A stretch of 64,000 nt of DNA from Escherichia phage OLB35 (MH992122.1); one strand, 5' to 3'; positions 4,988 through 25,945 are shown, counted from the first letter of the stretch. Numbers and translations are program-made. Notes: generated by a model not told the origin, from the letters alone.

Positions 4988-6676
4988 TTATGAAACAGTC
5001 ATTACAGTAAATCGTCCAACTTTACTCATCTGAAGATGTTGTCCATAACGTTGAGGGTCATGGTCTCGATGAGAGATAATGAACACGTTAGTATTTTGTA
5101 AACTTCCAAGAATGGTATCTATAGCCTTAACAGCTTCAGAATCTACAGCGCCGTCAAAAACCTCATCAAGAATCAACGTGTTGATTTTAACACCAGAAAC
5201 CTTTTCAGCAATATCTCGCCATGTAAACAACAATGCGATATCGATACGTGCCTTTTCACCTTGACTAAATGAAGCATAACTAAAATCTTCACGACCACGT
5301 GATTTTATAGATTCATTGAATTCTTCATCAATAGAAAACACGTAATCAGCTTCCATGATTTTAAGGTAATGGTTAATCTGCTTGTTGAACAGAGGCACAT
5401 ATTTTTTAATGATAGCACCTTTAATACCAGAATCTTTTAACATATCTGTGATAATACCACGATGGTATTTTTCAAGAACGATATCCGATTTTGTTTTAAT
5501 GATTTTATCAAGTTCTTTTTGAAGCAAAGCTATCTCATCGGCATGGTCGATAAATTCTGCCGAGGCTTGCTCTATTGCAGCTTTAACTTTCTTAGCTTTA
5601 TCAATAGTGGCAATCATTGCTTGTTTCTTGGTACGAATATCAGATGCAAGGTCCTGTTTAGTCTTAACATTAGCTCTATATTCGTCCACTAGGACACTCA
5701 GATTATCTCTGTGACAGGTAAGTTGCTCGAATGAGTGATTACATTCATGAAGCTTATCGGTAATCTTAGAGACAATAGGATCACCCTGGTGCAACTGTGA
5801 TGCACAAGTAGGACATGTACCGCCATCGTGATACATCTTAATAACTTTGTTATACGAGTCAATTTTAGATTTAATCAAGAATGCTTCTTGTCCGATCTTG
5901 TTGAATGCCTCAGTAGGGTCTTCGTCAAGAACGATATTAAGTAGTCGCTCATTAGCTTCTTCGATTTCTGCTTTTAATGAACGAGCTTCTTTGGCTAGGT
6001 CGTCATACATATTCTGTAGACGCGCTACATTATCGCCAGATAATTTCTTTTGACGTTCGATATTCTCGTTATAAATCTTAATTTGTTGGATAATACCATC
6101 TTTCTTGGCATCGAGAACTTGTCCCTGGGAATTAAGTTCTCGAACTTGAGACTTATTGATTTTATCCATTTCAGCGAGTGTTCCAACTTCTAATAAGTCT
6201 TCAACAAGCTTTCTGCGAGCAGGGGTGTTAAGAGCCATGAAAGGGGTATACCCTGCCGTCCCAAGCACAACGATCTGTTTAAAAGACGCGTATGACATTC
6301 CGATGCTACGTTCAAATTCTTCTTGGAAGTCACGACTGCTGGCAGATTCATCAAGACGAACACCGTCAACGGAGATTTCGAAAATATTGGGCTTTTGGCC
6401 ACGTTTAATGAAGTATTTTTTATCATCAAATTCCATCCAAAGCTCAACTAAGAGCTCTTTCTTGTTCGTGCTATTAATGATTTGTCCTTTCTTAACATCA
6501 CGAAATGGTTTACCGAAAAGTCCGAAAGTAATGGCTTCTAACATCGTAGATTTACCACCGCCATTTTTACCAGTGATTAATGTCTTTTGGACTTTATCTA
6601 ATTGGATATCAATAGGATTCCCACCTACCGACATGATGTTTTGATAACGAACACGATTTAATTTAAATGATTTCAT
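4988..6676 (-). CDS. 46: Recombination endonuclease subunit gp46 (SbcC/Rad50-like ATPase)
   Basis: 562 aa; P-loop GKNGGGKST, long coiled-coil middle, C-terminal ABC-type motifs; precedes 47. Confidence 0.9.
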   Translation of the reverse strand: MKSFKLNRVRYQNIMSVGGNPIDIQLDKVQKTLITGKNGGGKSTMLEAITFGLFGKPFRDVKKGQIINSTNKKELLVELWMEFDDKKYFIKRGQKPNIFEISVDGVRLDESASSRDFQEEFERSIGMSYASFKQIVVLGTAGYTPFMALNTPARRKLVEDLLEVGTLAEMDKINKSQVRELNSQGQVLDAKKDGIIQQIKIYNENIERQKKLSGDNVARLQNMYDDLAKEARSLKAEIEEANERLLNIVLDEDPTEAFNKIGQEAFLIKSKIDSYNKVIKMYHDGGTCPTCASQLHQGDPIVSKITDKLHECNHSFEQLTCHRDNLSVLVDEYRANVKTKQDLASDIRTKKQAMIATIDKAKKVKAAIEQASAEFIDHADEIALLQKELDKIIKTKSDIVLEKYHRGIITDMLKDSGIKGAIIKKYVPLFNKQINHYLKIMEADYVFSIDEEFNESIKSRGREDFSYASFSQGEKARIDIALLFTWRDIAEKVSGVKINTLILDEVFDGAVDSEAVKAIDTILGSLQNTNVFIISHRDHDPQRYGQHLQMSKVGRFTVMTVS

Positions 6677-6927
6677 ATGTATTCTCTTCGAATGAAGTCC
6701 TCTACATATTTTAACATGTCATCCCTATCAGCAAAATATTCATCTAGTTCTGCATACATAACAACACCTGGTGCGTACTCACAGGTAACATACATTGTTC
6801 CAAAGAAACGAGGAGTTGATTCCTCGTAATTCTCAGTCCATTCAACTATACCAATATAACCGTCACCAATACTAAATTCATGACGATGGATTTCATAATC
6901 AGTCTTCGTCATTATACGCATCCTCAA
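6673..6927 (-). CDS. Hypothetical protein (46.1-like)
   Basis: 84-aa ORF overlapping the gp46 start by 4 nt; synteny with T4 46.1. Confidence 0.5.
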   Translation of the reverse strand: MRMRIMTKTDYEIHRHEFSIGDGYIGIVEWTENYEESTPRFFGTMYVTCEYAPGVVMYAELDEYFADRDDMLKYVEDFIRREYI

Positions 6928-7156
6928 TACACGCTTCAGCCATTTTAAGAATAGAGCCAGGAGTATCGTTGTCCATTATATTAAAGCTAAATTCAATAGC
7001 CCAGTCGGTACAGACATGAACGGCTTTAACTTCATTGCCTTCAACGCGTAATGGCTCAATCCAATACTTGATAGTGTTCTCGAATCCATCATCATCTTTA
7101 ACGTCTATTTCAACTTCAAGCCCAAGCCCAGCATTGTTAAATTCATCTAAAGTCAT
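6899..7156 (-). CDS. Hypothetical acidic protein (46.2-like)
   Basis: 85-aa ORF between 46.1 and 47. Confidence 0.45.
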   Translation of the reverse strand: MTLDEFNNAGLGLEVEIDVKDDDGFENTIKYWIEPLRVEGNEVKAVHVCTDWAIEFSFNIMDNDTPGSILKMAEACIEDAYNDED

Positions 7157-8172
7157 TGTGTTGCCTCAATATAAAGTTCGTTGGAATATTTGACCAGCGC
7201 TTCTCTGTCTTCGTCTGAGATATCCGGAATCGCGTCAATATATTCTTTAATGATATCTTGAAGTGATTTAATCTCGATTTCCTGGTCGTCATCAGATTCA
7301 ACACTGTTATCAACTTTAGAAACCATACGAAGAGAGTGAACTACTTTTTCAAGTTCAGATTCAAACTTAGTCAACTCTGAATCAATTTCTGATACTATAA
7401 CACGTACGGCTAGATTAGTATAATCAGAATAATTAATTTTGCCTTTAAACGGATAAGTGATTCGTCGATGCCATGTCGTTTCATTGGGAATAAATTCCAT
7501 ACGTTCAACAACAGTGTCAAATACCCAGAATCCTCGCGGATCGTTCTCATCACCTGCAGTAAGGGTCCATGGTGTCCCAATATATTTGACGTTAGCAGCT
7601 TCAGAGATTGTGTGGAAGTGGCCAGACCAGACTTGTTTATAGGTCTTTAAGAAATCAGGTTCAAGCCCATGAGACTTCATTCCTTTATAGAAATAAAAGC
7701 CGTTCAGTTCCCAGTGCCCAACACAGTACGCTGCGGAAGAAGTCTTGATGTGCTCTAAGATTTCACCTGTATTTTCTTCACACATCCACGGAACGATATC
7801 GATCAGACATCCGTCAAAATCTACAGTAGTTGGATGTTCGTAAATAGTAAAGTTTTCAAATTGAGTTAACAATTCAGAAACAGTGTTAGGTGTTATTGTA
7901 TTCTTAAACGCCATGTCATGGTTTCCTATCGTGACATGAACGTGAATGCCTGCCTTAGAAATCATATCAACTATTTCACGATTGAATTCCATCGTACGAT
8001 GTGTAATTGCTTTACGGACGTCAAACCAATCACCGTACTGAATCCAAGTTTTAATACCGTGTTTCTTAGAGTATTCAATTGCTTGACGAATACCATCACG
8101 TTGAATATCTTGAACCCATGGGTCGTCCTGTTTAACGCCGATATGGAAGTCACCTAAATGTAAAATTTTCAT
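7153..8172 (-). CDS. 47: Recombination nuclease subunit gp47 (Mre11/SbcD-like)
   Basis: MKILHLGDFHIG...GNHD phosphoesterase motifs, T4 gp47-like; the track ORF (to 8250) carries 26 extra N-terminal codons. Confidence 0.9.
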   Translation of the reverse strand: MKILHLGDFHIGVKQDDPWVQDIQRDGIRQAIEYSKKHGIKTWIQYGDWFDVRKAITHRTMEFNREIVDMISKAGIHVHVTIGNHDMAFKNTITPNTVSELLTQFENFTIYEHPTTVDFDGCLIDIVPWMCEENTGEILEHIKTSSAAYCVGHWELNGFYFYKGMKSHGLEPDFLKTYKQVWSGHFHTISEAANVKYIGTPWTLTAGDENDPRGFWVFDTVVERMEFIPNETTWHRRITYPFKGKINYSDYTNLAVRVIVSEIDSELTKFESELEKVVHSLRMVSKVDNSVESDDDQEIEIKSLQDIIKEYIDAIPDISDEDREALVKYSNELYIEATQ

Positions 8173-21987: not shown

Positions 21988-22980
21988 TTATTTCAGTAAA
22001 GTTACTTCAGAGATTTCCTCCCAACCATCTTTATCAGTTGAAATAAAATCTGCTACATAAAGAGCCGTACGTAATGATACATTGCGAAGACGAGATACGT
22101 TAGCCTTCATCCAGGACAATGCTTTGTACGTTTCAGCATCAGTCAAGCCACGTTTCTGCATCATGTCAGTAGATAATATTACATCTTCAACTCGAACCAT
22201 AATCTCTTCATTAGAGTGTACTCCAAGGTCCAAATACACTGAACGAGATACTAAAGCTTGAAGGTGTGGAGCAAGTTTCGAACCGCGTTCTAACTCTTTA
22301 TCAATATCAACGTTTGTAATGAAAACGATAGTACCTTCAAACTCAAATTCTTTATCGATACCCTTATCATCGAGATAAGATGACGCAGTGCTCCAGCAAA
22401 CTTTGCGTTTATCACCAGTATCTAATGCTGCTTTAAGAAGGTTCAAGATGTCCATATCCGAGAATACGTCAACGTCGTCGATTAAGAGAACGCTGTCTGC
22501 ATCACGGTTGAGCCAAAGTTGTTCGTAAAGGCCAATACCAGAGATTTTACCATTAATGCTTTTGTATTTGATGAAACCGTTATCATTAGCATTATTAAGT
22601 GCTTTATCCAGAGAATACGTCTTACCAATACCGGCTGCACCTGAAATAATGAGTGAACGAATTTTGCCATCGATAATACCATTCGTCATCATGTTCATTA
22701 CTTTAAAGCGTTTGTTGATACGAGTTTTCATATCTTCAGTGCTTTCAACAACTGCAACTGGTGATGTCTCAACTCCTTCCATTACGATGTCTGATTTGAA
22801 GACCCATACTCCACGTTCAGAACCATCAATCATAACGAAAATTTTACCGTCACCTAAGTGGGAACATTCAGGATTAAGCTTTGCCGGGAACCATGTCTTT
22901 GTGGCAACATAAGAACCAGAGATTTCGTTATTACGATAGATACCTTTTTTGATTTGAACGTTGAACATTTTATTCTCCAA
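21988..22980 (-). CDS. P-loop NTPase
   Basis: 330 aa; Walker A GAAGIGKT and Walker B VLLIDDVD. Confidence 0.6.
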   Translation of the reverse strand: MENKMFNVQIKKGIYRNNEISGSYVATKTWFPAKLNPECSHLGDGKIFVMIDGSERGVWVFKSDIVMEGVETSPVAVVESTEDMKTRINKRFKVMNMMTNGIIDGKIRSLIISGAAGIGKTYSLDKALNNANDNGFIKYKSINGKISGIGLYEQLWLNRDADSVLLIDDVDVFSDMDILNLLKAALDTGDKRKVCWSTASSYLDDKGIDKEFEFEGTIVFITNVDIDKELERGSKLAPHLQALVSRSVYLDLGVHSNEEIMVRVEDVILSTDMMQKRGLTDAETYKALSWMKANVSRLRNVSLRTALYVADFISTDKDGWEEISEVTLLK

Positions 22981-23257: not shown

Positions 23258-23346
23258 TTTGTTTTCTCCTCTTGTTTTGATAGGTCCTATAATAACATAT
23301 CCTAAAAGCATGTACACTACTTTTTAAAAATATTTTGACCCCTAAA

Positions 23347-23360
23347 GGGCCCGAAGGCCC
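23347..23360. terminator. GC hairpin (GGGCC-CGAA-GGCCC), bidirectional terminator candidate
   Basis: Perfect 5-bp GC stem with T-rich flanks on both strands, immediately 3' of the nucleotidyltransferase gene. Confidence 0.5.
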
Positions 23361-23363
23361 TTA

Positions 23364-24353
23364 TCATTTATAGTATGAATTATGATTTTCGAGATAGACT
23401 TGCTCAAGGAAATCATCCCAGAAACTCATATCTACCTTTTGTTGCATACCGTTCTTAGCGGCTTGTTCTGACGCGTGTTCAACTTGGTCAACGATATCTT
23501 CTAGGAATTCTTGTACAGTTTTAAACGTATGTTTACCAAGCTTAACATCGAGAATAAATGGAGCATCCTGAAGTGGGTAAACCAGGTCGCCGGTTTTGTA
23601 AATTTCCAATAATTGAAGTCCACCACGACACGCATGACTCAATGCTTTCCAGTCAATACCTTCATTGGCTTCTGCCTTACGAGCACGTTCACCATAGTTC
23701 TCTTCCAGTTTAACCAGGATGGCATTGAACTCTTTATTGGTTAACGTGTCTTGGAATTTACGGTCTAACAGATTATAGAATGTTTGCTTACCTGTTTTCT
23801 CGTTTTCGGTTTCAACCCACGAAGCAAATTCACCTATAGGCAGAACATTCTTCATATGTGATAAACGAATTACTGCACCGTTATCAAAGTATTGTCCCCA
23901 TTCATTAGAACGTTTAAGGGCTTGACGAAGAACAGCCAGTCGAGAACCCTTGACGCCATATTTAGAAGCTTGCTTACGGACATACCCTAAATAAGATTTC
24001 ATGTTAGTGGTATAGAAACGAGACCTGTTATCTTGAATATACTTCCATACATCAGGCAAATCAGATTTAACTACTAGACTTGGTGGAGTGTGAAGCATAT
24101 CTAATGCGACGGTTTCACCATCAGCAGCTAGTTTAAAGAAATATTTGAGACTATACAACTCATGGTCCACGTCGTCTTTTGTGTTCTTAGAAGATGTGTT
24201 ATTCGTGTTCTTGCTCATATGTTCTTTAACGTTACCGGTCAAGATATCACGAGCATGAGGGACATAAATTTCTTTAAAATCGACGTCAGATTCAGGAGTA
24301 GACGTTCCATAAAGGTGGCTACCAAAGTAGCCTTTCATAATTGTTTTCATCAT
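23364..24353 (-). CDS. Pol-beta-superfamily nucleotidyltransferase
   Basis: 329 aa; N-terminal GSHLYGTSTPESDVD fits the G[SG]x9-13Dx[DE] motif. Confidence 0.55.
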   Translation of the reverse strand: MMKTIMKGYFGSHLYGTSTPESDVDFKEIYVPHARDILTGNVKEHMSKNTNNTSSKNTKDDVDHELYSLKYFFKLAADGETVALDMLHTPPSLVVKSDLPDVWKYIQDNRSRFYTTNMKSYLGYVRKQASKYGVKGSRLAVLRQALKRSNEWGQYFDNGAVIRLSHMKNVLPIGEFASWVETENEKTGKQTFYNLLDRKFQDTLTNKEFNAILVKLEENYGERARKAEANEGIDWKALSHACRGGLQLLEIYKTGDLVYPLQDAPFILDVKLGKHTFKTVQEFLEDIVDQVEHASEQAAKNGMQQKVDMSFWDDFLEQVYLENHNSYYK

Positions 24354-24823
24354 TTAGCCTTATATTCAAGAGTAGGACAGACTTTTTCTTTACGAGCTTT
24401 AAGGTATTCACCTATTAATGATTTCTTACGTTCAATAGGCTCAAGTCCATTTTTAATTCGTTCTTGGTTTTGTGCAATGAGCTCAACTTCTTTATAATAC
24501 TTCCGCTCTCTGTATAAGTCGATTAGCCACGGTATGCCTAATACTAAAACTATAGAAATACCAACACATAATGCAATGAATAAAACACCTACACCAATTG
24601 AGGCCGGAACCAATGTCCATAAACTACTAAAGACAAAGAATTTAGTTAAAATTTCCTGGCCAACGATTGTGGCCGCTGCTAAAATCGCAAATCCAATAAT
24701 CGAAACAAACAATACCGGGAGAAACGTTTTCCAAAAATAAGCACACAACGTTTTCGGACGATTCCATGTACTATTAAACGCGGCATAAATTTTAAAGTGC
24801 CAAGAGTTTTCATTGATAATCAT
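24350..24823 (-). CDS. Integral membrane protein (3 predicted TM segments)
   Basis: 157 aa; stop/start overlap (ATGA) with the nucleotidyltransferase gene. Confidence 0.55.
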   Translation of the reverse strand: MIINENSWHFKIYAAFNSTWNRPKTLCAYFWKTFLPVLFVSIIGFAILAAATIVGQEILTKFFVFSSLWTLVPASIGVGVLFIALCVGISIVLVLGIPWLIDLYRERKYYKEVELIAQNQERIKNGLEPIERKKSLIGEYLKARKEKVCPTLEYKAK

Positions 24824-24832
24824 AATAATTCC

Positions 24833-25363
24833 TTATTTCAAAGTTGGGATAATAGAATCGAGATAAGCTTTAAGAGCAACTGCTTCATCTTTGTCTAATG
24901 TAACGATATGTTGACGAAGGTCATCAATTTGACGAATAACTACAACATCGCCATCTTCATAAGAAGGATTAACGCCTAGGACCGTTGTATAGTCAGGGCG
25001 GTCCTGATTTGTAATAAAAGCATTACGGCATTTAGCCCATTGAAGTTTGGCCTTTTTGGCTGTTTCAGATTCCATTAATTCTTTCACCTTAGTGACGAAT
25101 GTTTTCCAATTATTAATAGAAAGGCATTCATCTTCTGTTTCGATATTAACCCCACTATAAAGACCGTGATAAAAACGAACTTGAAGGTCTTCATCGATGT
25201 TAATTACAGATGCATGGCCGGGCGGATTGAGTTTCAAAATCTTGTCCAGTTCCATAGGAAGAATAGTAACAGAATCATCTTCTTGTGTCAGAACATACAC
25301 ATAACCACGTTTTTCGATACATAAATCGCCAAACAACTCGGTTGTTTCAATTACAGTTTTCAT
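24833..25363 (-). CDS. Hypothetical protein
   Basis: 177 aa from the ATG at 25363 (MKTVIETTELF...); the track form begins at a TTG four codons upstream. Confidence 0.5.
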   Translation of the reverse strand: MKTVIETTELFGDLCIEKRGYVYVLTQEDDSVTILPMELDKILKLNPPGHASVINIDEDLQVRFYHGLYSGVNIETEDECLSINNWKTFVTKVKELMESETAKKAKLQWAKCRNAFITNQDRPDYTTVLGVNPSYEDGDVVVIRQIDDLRQHIVTLDKDEAVALKAYLDSIIPTLK

Positions 25364-25364
25364 A

Positions 25365-25544
25365 TTATTCACCAATTAAAGTTTCAACAAAATTCACCAA
25401 ATCATTCAGACAAGCATCAACCTGTTTTTCATAAAAGTCTTCGTTATCATTTACTGCATGATAAGCTACATCATTCAAATCTGAATCGGCTTCACGTAAG
25501 TTACGGATAAGTTCCATCAATTTATTAGCTTGTTCACGGGTCAT
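25365..25544 (-). CDS. Hypothetical small acidic protein (59 aa)
   Basis: MTREQANKLMELIRNLREADSDLNDVAYHAVNDNEDFYEKQVDACLNDLVNFVETLIGE. Confidence 0.35.
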   Translation of the reverse strand: MTREQANKLMELIRNLREADSDLNDVAYHAVNDNEDFYEKQVDACLNDLVNFVETLIGE

Positions 25545-25651
25545 TTTACCATACTCGTTTCAATAAGATTCACTATGCCGTTTACCATGTTATAAGTAAA
25601 CATCGGATAATTGTATTGTACTACAACATAAGCGATAAGCAAAAGTTTCAT
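25541..25651 (-). CDS. Hydrophobic micro-protein (36 aa)
   Basis: MKLLLIAYVVVQYNYPMFTYNMVNGIVNLIETSMVK; Shine-Dalgarno GGAGAACAAA; its TGA overlaps the next ATG (ATGA). Confidence 0.35.
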   Translation of the reverse strand: MKLLLIAYVVVQYNYPMFTYNMVNGIVNLIETSMVK

Positions 25652-25679: not shown

Positions 25680-25708
25680 ACTATAACATAATCCTACCAA
25701 GATGTAAA
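25680..25708 (-). promoter_or_regulatory. Early promoter / PeSL-like element
   Basis: Minus-strand GTTTACA-N17-TATAGT; -10 embedded between arms GGTAGGA/TCCTACC. Confidence 0.5.
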
Positions 25709-25945
25709 CTACCGATTGTGTTTTAAATGTTGATAAAGTTCTTCAACTTGTTTAGGGTCCAAAACAATTAGGTCATTTTCTTGACGAAGATAAATCCATC
25801 CCTTATCACCAGGTCCATTTTTACAAAACATCACCGTCGTCATATCATCATCTTCAGCGCTTTCAGGTAAAAGTTCAAGTACACCGTCTTCAGATTTTCC
25901 AGTATAATCGTAAAGCATAATATCCTCACATAATCTCGTTAACAT
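25709..25945 (-). CDS. Hypothetical protein
   Basis: 78-aa ORF. Confidence 0.45.
   Translation of the reverse strand: MLTRLCEDIMLYDYTGKSEDGVLELLPESAEDDDMTTVMFCKNGPGDKGWIYLRQENDLIVLDPKQVEELYQHLKHNR

Follow-up and report, generated by a model that had tools for sequence, protein, structure and literature searches.

The window analysed herein is a 64,000-nucleotide stretch of Escherichia phage OLB35 (MH992122.1), and the gene in question, at 23364-24353 on its minus strand, encodes a 329-amino-acid (aa) protein that is the orthologue of NrdC.11 of phage T4, a gene already catalogued and annotated. Among the polymerase beta (pol-beta) nucleotidyltransferases (NTases), NrdC.11 belongs to the RlaP branch (PF10127), as a divergent member of the "long" kind; it lies last in an early transcription unit, and a part of its cellular relatives is found beside genes for RNA repair. 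The reading that we favour, with somewhat better than even confidence, is that NrdC.11 is an early-expressed RlaP-type NTase which restores the ends of host tRNAs prior to ligation. A sequence-only reading of the same DNA had put the protein forward as a pol-beta NTase and a candidate for tRNA repair or an anti-defence function, and such a candidacy is implied by the assignment to the RlaP family.

NrdC.11 and its place in the RlaP family

Over its full length the protein shares 78% identity with T4 NrdC.11. The window belongs to an RB69-like (Mosigvirus) phage, a 2.7-kb region being 99% identical to Escherichia phage vB_EcoM_WFbE185 and, at the DNA level, 94.7% identical to RB69 (nrdC.10-nrdC.11-ORF104c-mobD.1 region), whose RefSeq gene order is nrdC.10, ORF102c, nrdC.11 ("nucleotidyltransferase"), ORF104c ("membrane protein"), mobD.1 and tk.1. 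As in T4 and RB69, the gene occupies the slot between nrdC.10 and mobD.1, on the same strand and in an early-region context; T4 differs in having mobD in place of the membrane-protein gene and in its start codon, and in nothing else of substance. T4 and most database entries begin NrdC.11 at the second Met (328 aa), which gives a 1-nt TGATG overlap with the preceding gene rather than the ATGA overlap, proposed from the sequence and seen here at 24350-24353, between the ATG of the NTase open reading frame (ORF) and the TGA stop of the 157-aa ORF before it.

In the databases the protein is labelled "nucleotidyltransferase" by RefSeq and matches phrog_388 (nucleotidyltransferase) at E=3e-126. Its sole Pfam match above threshold is RlaP (PF10127, "RNA repair pathway DNA polymerase beta family"), with 49 bits where the cutoff is 23 (E=8.4e-13); the match is confined to residues 7-152 and to profile positions 23-148 of 249. 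By tblastn, NrdC.11 is present in 1540 phage records, in Straboviridae and beyond, and an exhaustive 50%-cluster search returned 3215 clusters at E<=1e-3; homologue diversity was taken from the latter, since an earlier large search gave only proteins at least 98% identical. Many homologues in GenBank and UniRef are named "thioredoxin", a label apparently inherited from the gene name nrdC.x; thioredoxin similarity is absent from NrdC.11, whose Pfam match is to RlaP only. The sequence-only reading had been unable to assign the protein to a T4 gene, and had itself named homology to a T4 nrdC.x family of ordinary function as the outcome that would speak against it: the homology was found, so that the novelty is gone, but the function indicated is not an ordinary one.

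The pol-beta signature GSHLYGTSTPESDVD, correctly recognised from the sequence, stands at residues 11-25, and across 71 homologues (34-53% identity) G11, S12, S22, D23, D25, N57, D63, Y132, R223, K236, R243 and G273 are invariant. A pol-beta-type fold is supported by an AlphaFold2 (AF2) model computed from the alignment of these homologues (predicted local distance difference test, pLDDT, 94; predicted template-modelling score, pTM, 0.83), because of the order of its strands and helices and because its top neighbours in the Protein Data Bank (PDB) are NTases. In the model, strand 3-10 is followed by the GS turn, by strand 24-31 with D23 and D25, and by strand 62-68, which starts from D63; beyond this core lie a long helix (119-155), a small sheet (177-201) and a helical C-terminal part. 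The helical C-terminal region that had been read from the sequence therefore stands for about 200 residues, mostly helical, with the exception of the beta-sheet at 177-201. The third catalytic acidic residue, which remained to be located, we infer to be D63, which lies in the stretch that hhalign placed opposite LDxNGWD, the segment of canonical RlaP with the invariant Asp; which residue pairs with which was read by eye off the printed alignment.

The comparison of the model by Foldseek, proposed earlier as a check, supports the pol-beta fold. The best PDB matches were kanamycin/ANT(4') nucleotidyltransferases, the NTase-like entry 3c18 and the Hailong protein HalB, all weak (E about 1e-3), and in the viral library many phage and giant-virus "nucleotidyltransferases" were matched. 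The kanamycin NTase (KNTase, 1kny) and ANT(4') resemble NrdC.11 in having an NTase domain followed by a helical C-terminal domain, but identity is about 10%, the template-modelling (TM) score is 0.3-0.4, and they are small-molecule enzymes from unrelated gene contexts. PDB searches by sequence, both with NrdC.11 and with the 71-sequence profile, gave nothing meaningful, and no RlaP entry (the PfRlaP structure included) was among the PDB matches by sequence or among the fold matches listed.

The biochemistry of canonical RlaP has been described in a recent preprint (PMC12776372, 2025), in which two Pseudomonas RlaPs add 1-2 nucleoside monophosphates (NMPs), or dNMPs, to RNA 3'-OH ends, work best with Mn2+, leave DNA and protein untouched, act preferentially at the break in a mimic of cleaved tRNA and restore aminoacylation to tRNA without one anticodon-loop nucleotide; in vitro they also label many E. 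coli RNAs (rRNA, full-length tRNA) with little specificity for the nucleoside triphosphate (NTP). In the same work T4 NrdC.11 was put in cluster 5 of the PF10127 sequence-similarity network, "of unknown function". Iyer et al. (2021) predicted that RlaP replaces nucleotides removed by RloC-type nucleases ahead of ligation. With the canonical enzymes, encoded in the rtcB-rlaP-rtcA operons of P. fluorescens and P. aeruginosa, NrdC.11 shares a homologous N-terminal NTase domain (GS...DxD and a third Asp), a two-domain layout with a helical C-terminal part and, in cells, the association with RtcB, Pnkp, Hen1 and Ro60. It is, however, about 60-70 residues longer, and its C-terminal 200 or so residues, with their beta-sheet insert, are not profile-alignable; in the PfRlaP crystal structure the last C-terminal helix packs onto the NTase domain; the NrdC.11 model is largely helical past residue 119.

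Cellular homologues were surveyed in one genome per prokaryotic species, which yielded 80 loci with full-length homologues (33-52% identity); genes within a 6-kb range around the NTase gene were clustered and representatives scanned against Pfam. In 13 of the 80 loci a short RlaP gene (252-286 aa) accompanies the long one, immediately downstream in about 12, and the three short copies that were scanned match the whole RlaP profile (E 1e-51 to 1e-75). NrdC.11 is thus a paralogous subtype, in a network cluster of its own and in tandem with canonical RlaP in cells; no short RlaP was found in the phage window. The long NTase is followed directly by the short RlaP (252-277 aa) in bacterial loci L013, L028, L033, L044, L056, L058, L062, L071, L078 and L080, the two genes adjoining at about 6000-7950 in most such loci, which suggests a two-paralogue module.

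RNA repair and the competing readings

The cellular neighbourhoods associate the long subtype with RNA-repair genes. Among the 80 loci, RtcB was found in 6, Pnkp (kinase-phosphatase-ligase) in 6, Hen1 in 4 and TROVE/Ro60 in 4, amounting to 14 loci in all, against a chance expectation of about one, a rough figure that assumes a 12-kb span and some four single-copy genes in a genome of 4 Mb. The operon order Hen1-Pnkp-NTase occurs in L082, L083 and L058, and L033 carries an island of the form Ro60-RtcB-...-long NTase-RlaP-Hen1. As for the phages, RB69 encodes pseT, rnlA and rnlB, at 55-84 kb from nrdC.11.

We propose that D23, D25 and D63 would coordinate two divalent metal ions (probably Mn2+, by analogy), and that NrdC.11 would move one or a few NMPs from NTPs, template-free, onto the 3'-OH of a broken RNA. 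The most plausible substrate would be the 5' half of a host tRNA whose anticodon loop has been cut by a host nuclease that also removes a nucleotide (RloC-type), after which the phage PseT (polynucleotide kinase-phosphatase) and the RnlA/RnlB ligases could reseal a full-length, usable tRNA; NrdC.11 would in that case have an anti-defence role. Viable T4 mutants with a spontaneous nrdC.11-mobD.3 deletion have been seen, in keeping with an accessory or counter-defence role of the gene.

Several observations weigh against tRNA-end repair as the role of NrdC.11. About 70% of the 80 cellular loci have no recognisable RNA-repair neighbour, and in the phage no RNA-repair gene adjoins nrdC.11. That nrdC.11 occurs together with rnlA is uninformative, since nearly all T4-like phages carry the two genes; genus-level counts of phage records are almost identical for NrdC.11 and RnlA. 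When the profiles of long and short RlaP were compared by hhalign, only residues 4-131 aligned (93.7% probability), with no homology past about residue 131, and in phage NrdC.11 and its cellular homologues alike only the N-terminal part matches the RlaP Pfam profile. The occurrence of long and short RlaP in tandem in cells suggests that the two forms are non-redundant and that the long subtype may have a specificity unlike that of canonical RlaP; NrdC.11 may differ in its exact activity from the Pseudomonas enzymes; that it would add nucleotides to RNA 3' ends is drawn by analogy from the biochemistry of cluster-1a RlaPs. Finally, among solved structures NrdC.11 comes closest to small-molecule NTases and the DNA-synthesising HalB, not to RNA enzymes.

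It is possible, although we think it rather unlikely, that NrdC.11 works on RNA 3' ends outside ligase-dependent anticodon-loop repair, by rebuilding a trimmed tRNA 3'-CCA or by tailing host or phage RNAs and thereby influencing their stability during takeover. The broad labelling of rRNA, full-length tRNA and other RNAs by RlaPs in vitro (PMC12776372), the lack of linkage between nrdC.11 and ligase genes in the phage, the C-terminal region unlike that of canonical RlaP, and a homologue in Erwinia phage Hena1 located about 2 kb from the gene of a CCA-adding enzyme would all suit such a role, but the cellular homologues of the subtype lie in Pnkp/Hen1, RtcB and Ro60 repair islands, and the protein does not resemble the CCA-adding or poly(A) polymerase families. 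The Hena1 protein (L007 2489-3547) is a distant NrdC.11 homologue (25% identity), and its gene lies downstream of the tRNA nucleotidyltransferase gene (L007 1-549) in what looks like a tRNA-maintenance neighbourhood. An activity on proteins or small molecules (ANT/KNTase, MNT or DrrA-type nucleotidylylation), inactivating for example a host defence toxin or metabolite, we hold to be improbable: the structural matches that would point to it are all weak (E about 1e-3, TM score 0.3-0.4, 5-16% identity), E. coli proteins were unlabelled by RlaPs (PMC12776372), there is no HEPN partner, no Rx4-6H motif and no PADLOC match, and the RNA-repair gene neighbourhoods argue for RNA.

The presence of HalB among the fold matches, and of a membrane-protein gene directly before nrdC.11, raises the further alternative of a module like Hailong HalA-HalB, in which an oligonucleotide made by the NTase would gate or regulate the membrane protein, or would mimic the HalB product so that the host HalA channel is kept closed. 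We regard this as very unlikely. HalB (PDB 9dbh/9dbj) shares 16% identity with NrdC.11 and no sequence match even by profile; it is a tetrameric protein of 217 aa that is Tyr-primed and makes poly-dA, and NrdC.11 has no conserved membrane-gene partner. Membership in the Hailong system was rejected, T4 and the distant phage homologues lacking the pairing, an upstream transmembrane neighbour being found in only 3 of 69 cellular homologues, and PADLOC giving no match. The least probable proposal, to which we give hardly any credence, is that NrdC.11 signals in the manner of cGAS/DncV or serves as a decoy for CBASS-type immunity. It has in its favour the shared pol-beta superfamily motif only; neither Pfam nor PADLOC gave a match to a CD-NTase family, and no CD-NTase was among the top structural neighbours listed, so that this membership was rejected as well. 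The CCA-adding, MNT-toxin-partner and cGAS/DncV alternatives, all raised by the sequence-only reading, found no support in Pfam, PADLOC, the fold matches or a motif scan: RlaP is the only Pfam match above threshold and no CCA-adding enzyme is among the listed fold matches, which led to the rejection of CCA-adding/poly(A) polymerase membership, and MNT-HEPN toxin-antitoxin membership was rejected for want of a HEPN partner and of the Rx4-6H motif.

The early unit and the upstream membrane protein

NrdC.11 is the last of five ORFs in a minus-strand early unit that runs from the promoter at 25709 to the UUCG hairpin at 23345-23362 (Table 1). The extended T4 early-promoter motif, GT[TG]TAC[AT]-N12-14-TGxTAT[AT][AG]T, has 8 matches on the minus strand of the window and none on the plus strand, as compared with a mean of 0.03 in composition-preserving shuffles; its sites (44287, 37110, 35815, 26161, 25709, 23317, 23036 and 21559) mark the early units of the window. 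A generic sigma-70 scan gave 12 sites where 11.1 were expected, which is not above chance; information came from the extended T4 early motif alone, and no middle (MotA-box) or late promoter motif was found inside the five-ORF unit. The early promoters that had been noted around the genes from the sequence are confirmed, with matches to the motif at 25709, 23317 and 23036 (the latter two each ahead of one of the next two genes), but none lies directly upstream of the 177-codon gene.

Table 1. Features of the early unit that contains nrdC.11 (coordinates in the window)
Feature	Position	Strand	Basis or remark
T4-type early promoter GTTTACA-N13-TGTTATAGT, start of transcription unit	25680..25709	-	extended motif
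36-aa hydrophobic ORF (MKLLLIAYVVVQ...)	25541..25651	-	GGAG Shine-Dalgarno; stop overlaps next start as ATGA
59-aa DUF7438 protein (tk.1 / "helicase loader" in RB69 RefSeq)	25365..25544	-	Pfam, phrog_4859
MobD.1 (y05I family, putative transcription factor), 176 aa + stop	24833..25363	-	Pfam; RB69 mobD.1
157-aa membrane protein (RB69ORF104c homologue, phrog_944), 2-3 hydrophobic spans	24350..24823	-	
NrdC.11, RlaP-family (long subtype) pol-beta nucleotidyltransferase, 329 aa	23364..24353	-	
Codons for catalytic motif G11-S12...D23-x-D25	24279..24323	-	invariance in 71 homologues
Codon for D63, inferred third catalytic carboxylate	24165..24167	-	invariance, model strand, hhalign segment
GC hairpin, UUCG tetraloop, directly past nrdC.11 stop; putative terminator or RNA-stabilising hairpin	23345..23362	-	
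Next early promoter GTGTACA-N13-TGTTATTAT, start of following unit (ORF102c)	23289..23317	-	extended motif

The three-gene operon described from the sequence is a physical fact, although the unit holds five ORFs, the 36-aa ORF and the 59-aa DUF7438 gene having been added, and the NTase and the membrane protein are not a conserved functional pair. The 36-aa ORF, first past the early promoter (full sequence MKLLLIAYVVVQYNYPMFTYNMVNGIVNLIETSMVK), has no gene annotated at its place in the RB69 RefSeq record. The label "helicase loader" (RefSeq, and PHROGs for phrog_4859) on the DUF7438 protein looks doubtful given its small size. The ATG of mobD.1 lies just past the stop of the 59-aa ORF; the upstream gene was rightly placed but its product counts 176 aa, the 177th codon being the stop, with Pfam matches to T4_y05I_N (E=7.5e-41) and T4_y05I_C (E=1.4e-19). 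The hairpin, AAGGGCC-UUCG-GGCCCUU with a 7-bp stem, is present as had been claimed, and a terminator is annotated at its position in the closest GenBank record; it is without a clean U-run and has a folding z-score of only -1.4. Past the unit, NrdC.10 (330 aa, 21988-22980, minus strand) has its own early promoter, a Walker-A P-loop (GAAGIGKT) and sub-threshold Pfam matches to AAA_22, AAA_16, STAND-type NTPases and an HTH_37 domain. NCBIfam and PADLOC gave no relevant match for the NTase, the membrane protein, MobD.1 or NrdC.10.

The 157-aa protein is hydrophobic, as the sequence-only reading had it, but its three transmembrane spans are unproven: hydropathy gives two blocks (25-65 and 62-105), and an AF2 model of poor quality (pLDDT 65, pTM 0.32) has two long helices. 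With both of its termini basic, the protein is more likely to cross the membrane an even number of times. Its conserved basic C-terminal tail reads KKSxIxEYLKARKxKVCPxxEYKA, and residues 126-156 (GLxPIxxKKSxIxEYLKARKxKVCPxxEYKA) are nearly invariant at an overall identity of 40-48%, the spans being far less conserved. The protein occurs in 1015 phage records, with its gene directly before nrdC.11 in Mosigvirus and in most Tequatrovirus phages, T2 included. In T4 the HNH homing endonuclease gene mobD fills that slot; this free-standing gene (L002 10430-11209) stands exactly where RB69-like and T2-like phages have the membrane gene, which its insertion apparently replaced. One or two other genes separate the membrane gene and nrdC.11 in Jiaodavirus, Tegunavirus and Kanagawavirus, an Otagovirus phage has the membrane gene and no nrdC.11-sized gene within the 2.5 kb shown on either side, and the neighbours of the NrdC.11 homologues of Acinetobacter, Aeromonas, Vibrio and Erwinia phages are non-membrane. 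By this distribution the pairing is lineage-specific and not a conserved functional pair. The membrane protein is translationally coupled to NrdC.11 here, but its gene is probably accessory and independent, and has stayed in place through synteny. That the Mosigvirus/Tequatrovirus pair should nevertheless act in a Hailong-like manner, with an oligonucleotide sensed by the conserved basic tail or mimicking a host Hailong signal, is a proposal we consider far-fetched; if true, it would tie nucleotide synthesis to membrane events beside the rI lysis-inhibition genes.

Implications for T4-like phages

As the gene had been annotated and the idea published before, the window brings no new entity. 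Its contribution is one of support: the NrdC.11 subtype sits in bacterial RNA-repair islands, and the linkage to the membrane gene is probably non-functional. The kinase-ligase tRNA repair of T4 is the textbook example of how a phage counters the PrrC anticodon nuclease, and RloC-type nucleases are thought to defeat repair of this type by removing a nucleotide as well. If NrdC.11 replaces the missing nucleotide, it would be the phage's next move in the arms race with RloC, and as a counter-measure to RloC the hypothesis is directly testable. If true, tRNA-end repair would also explain the upkeep of the non-essential nrdC.11 in about 1500 sequenced T4-like phages.

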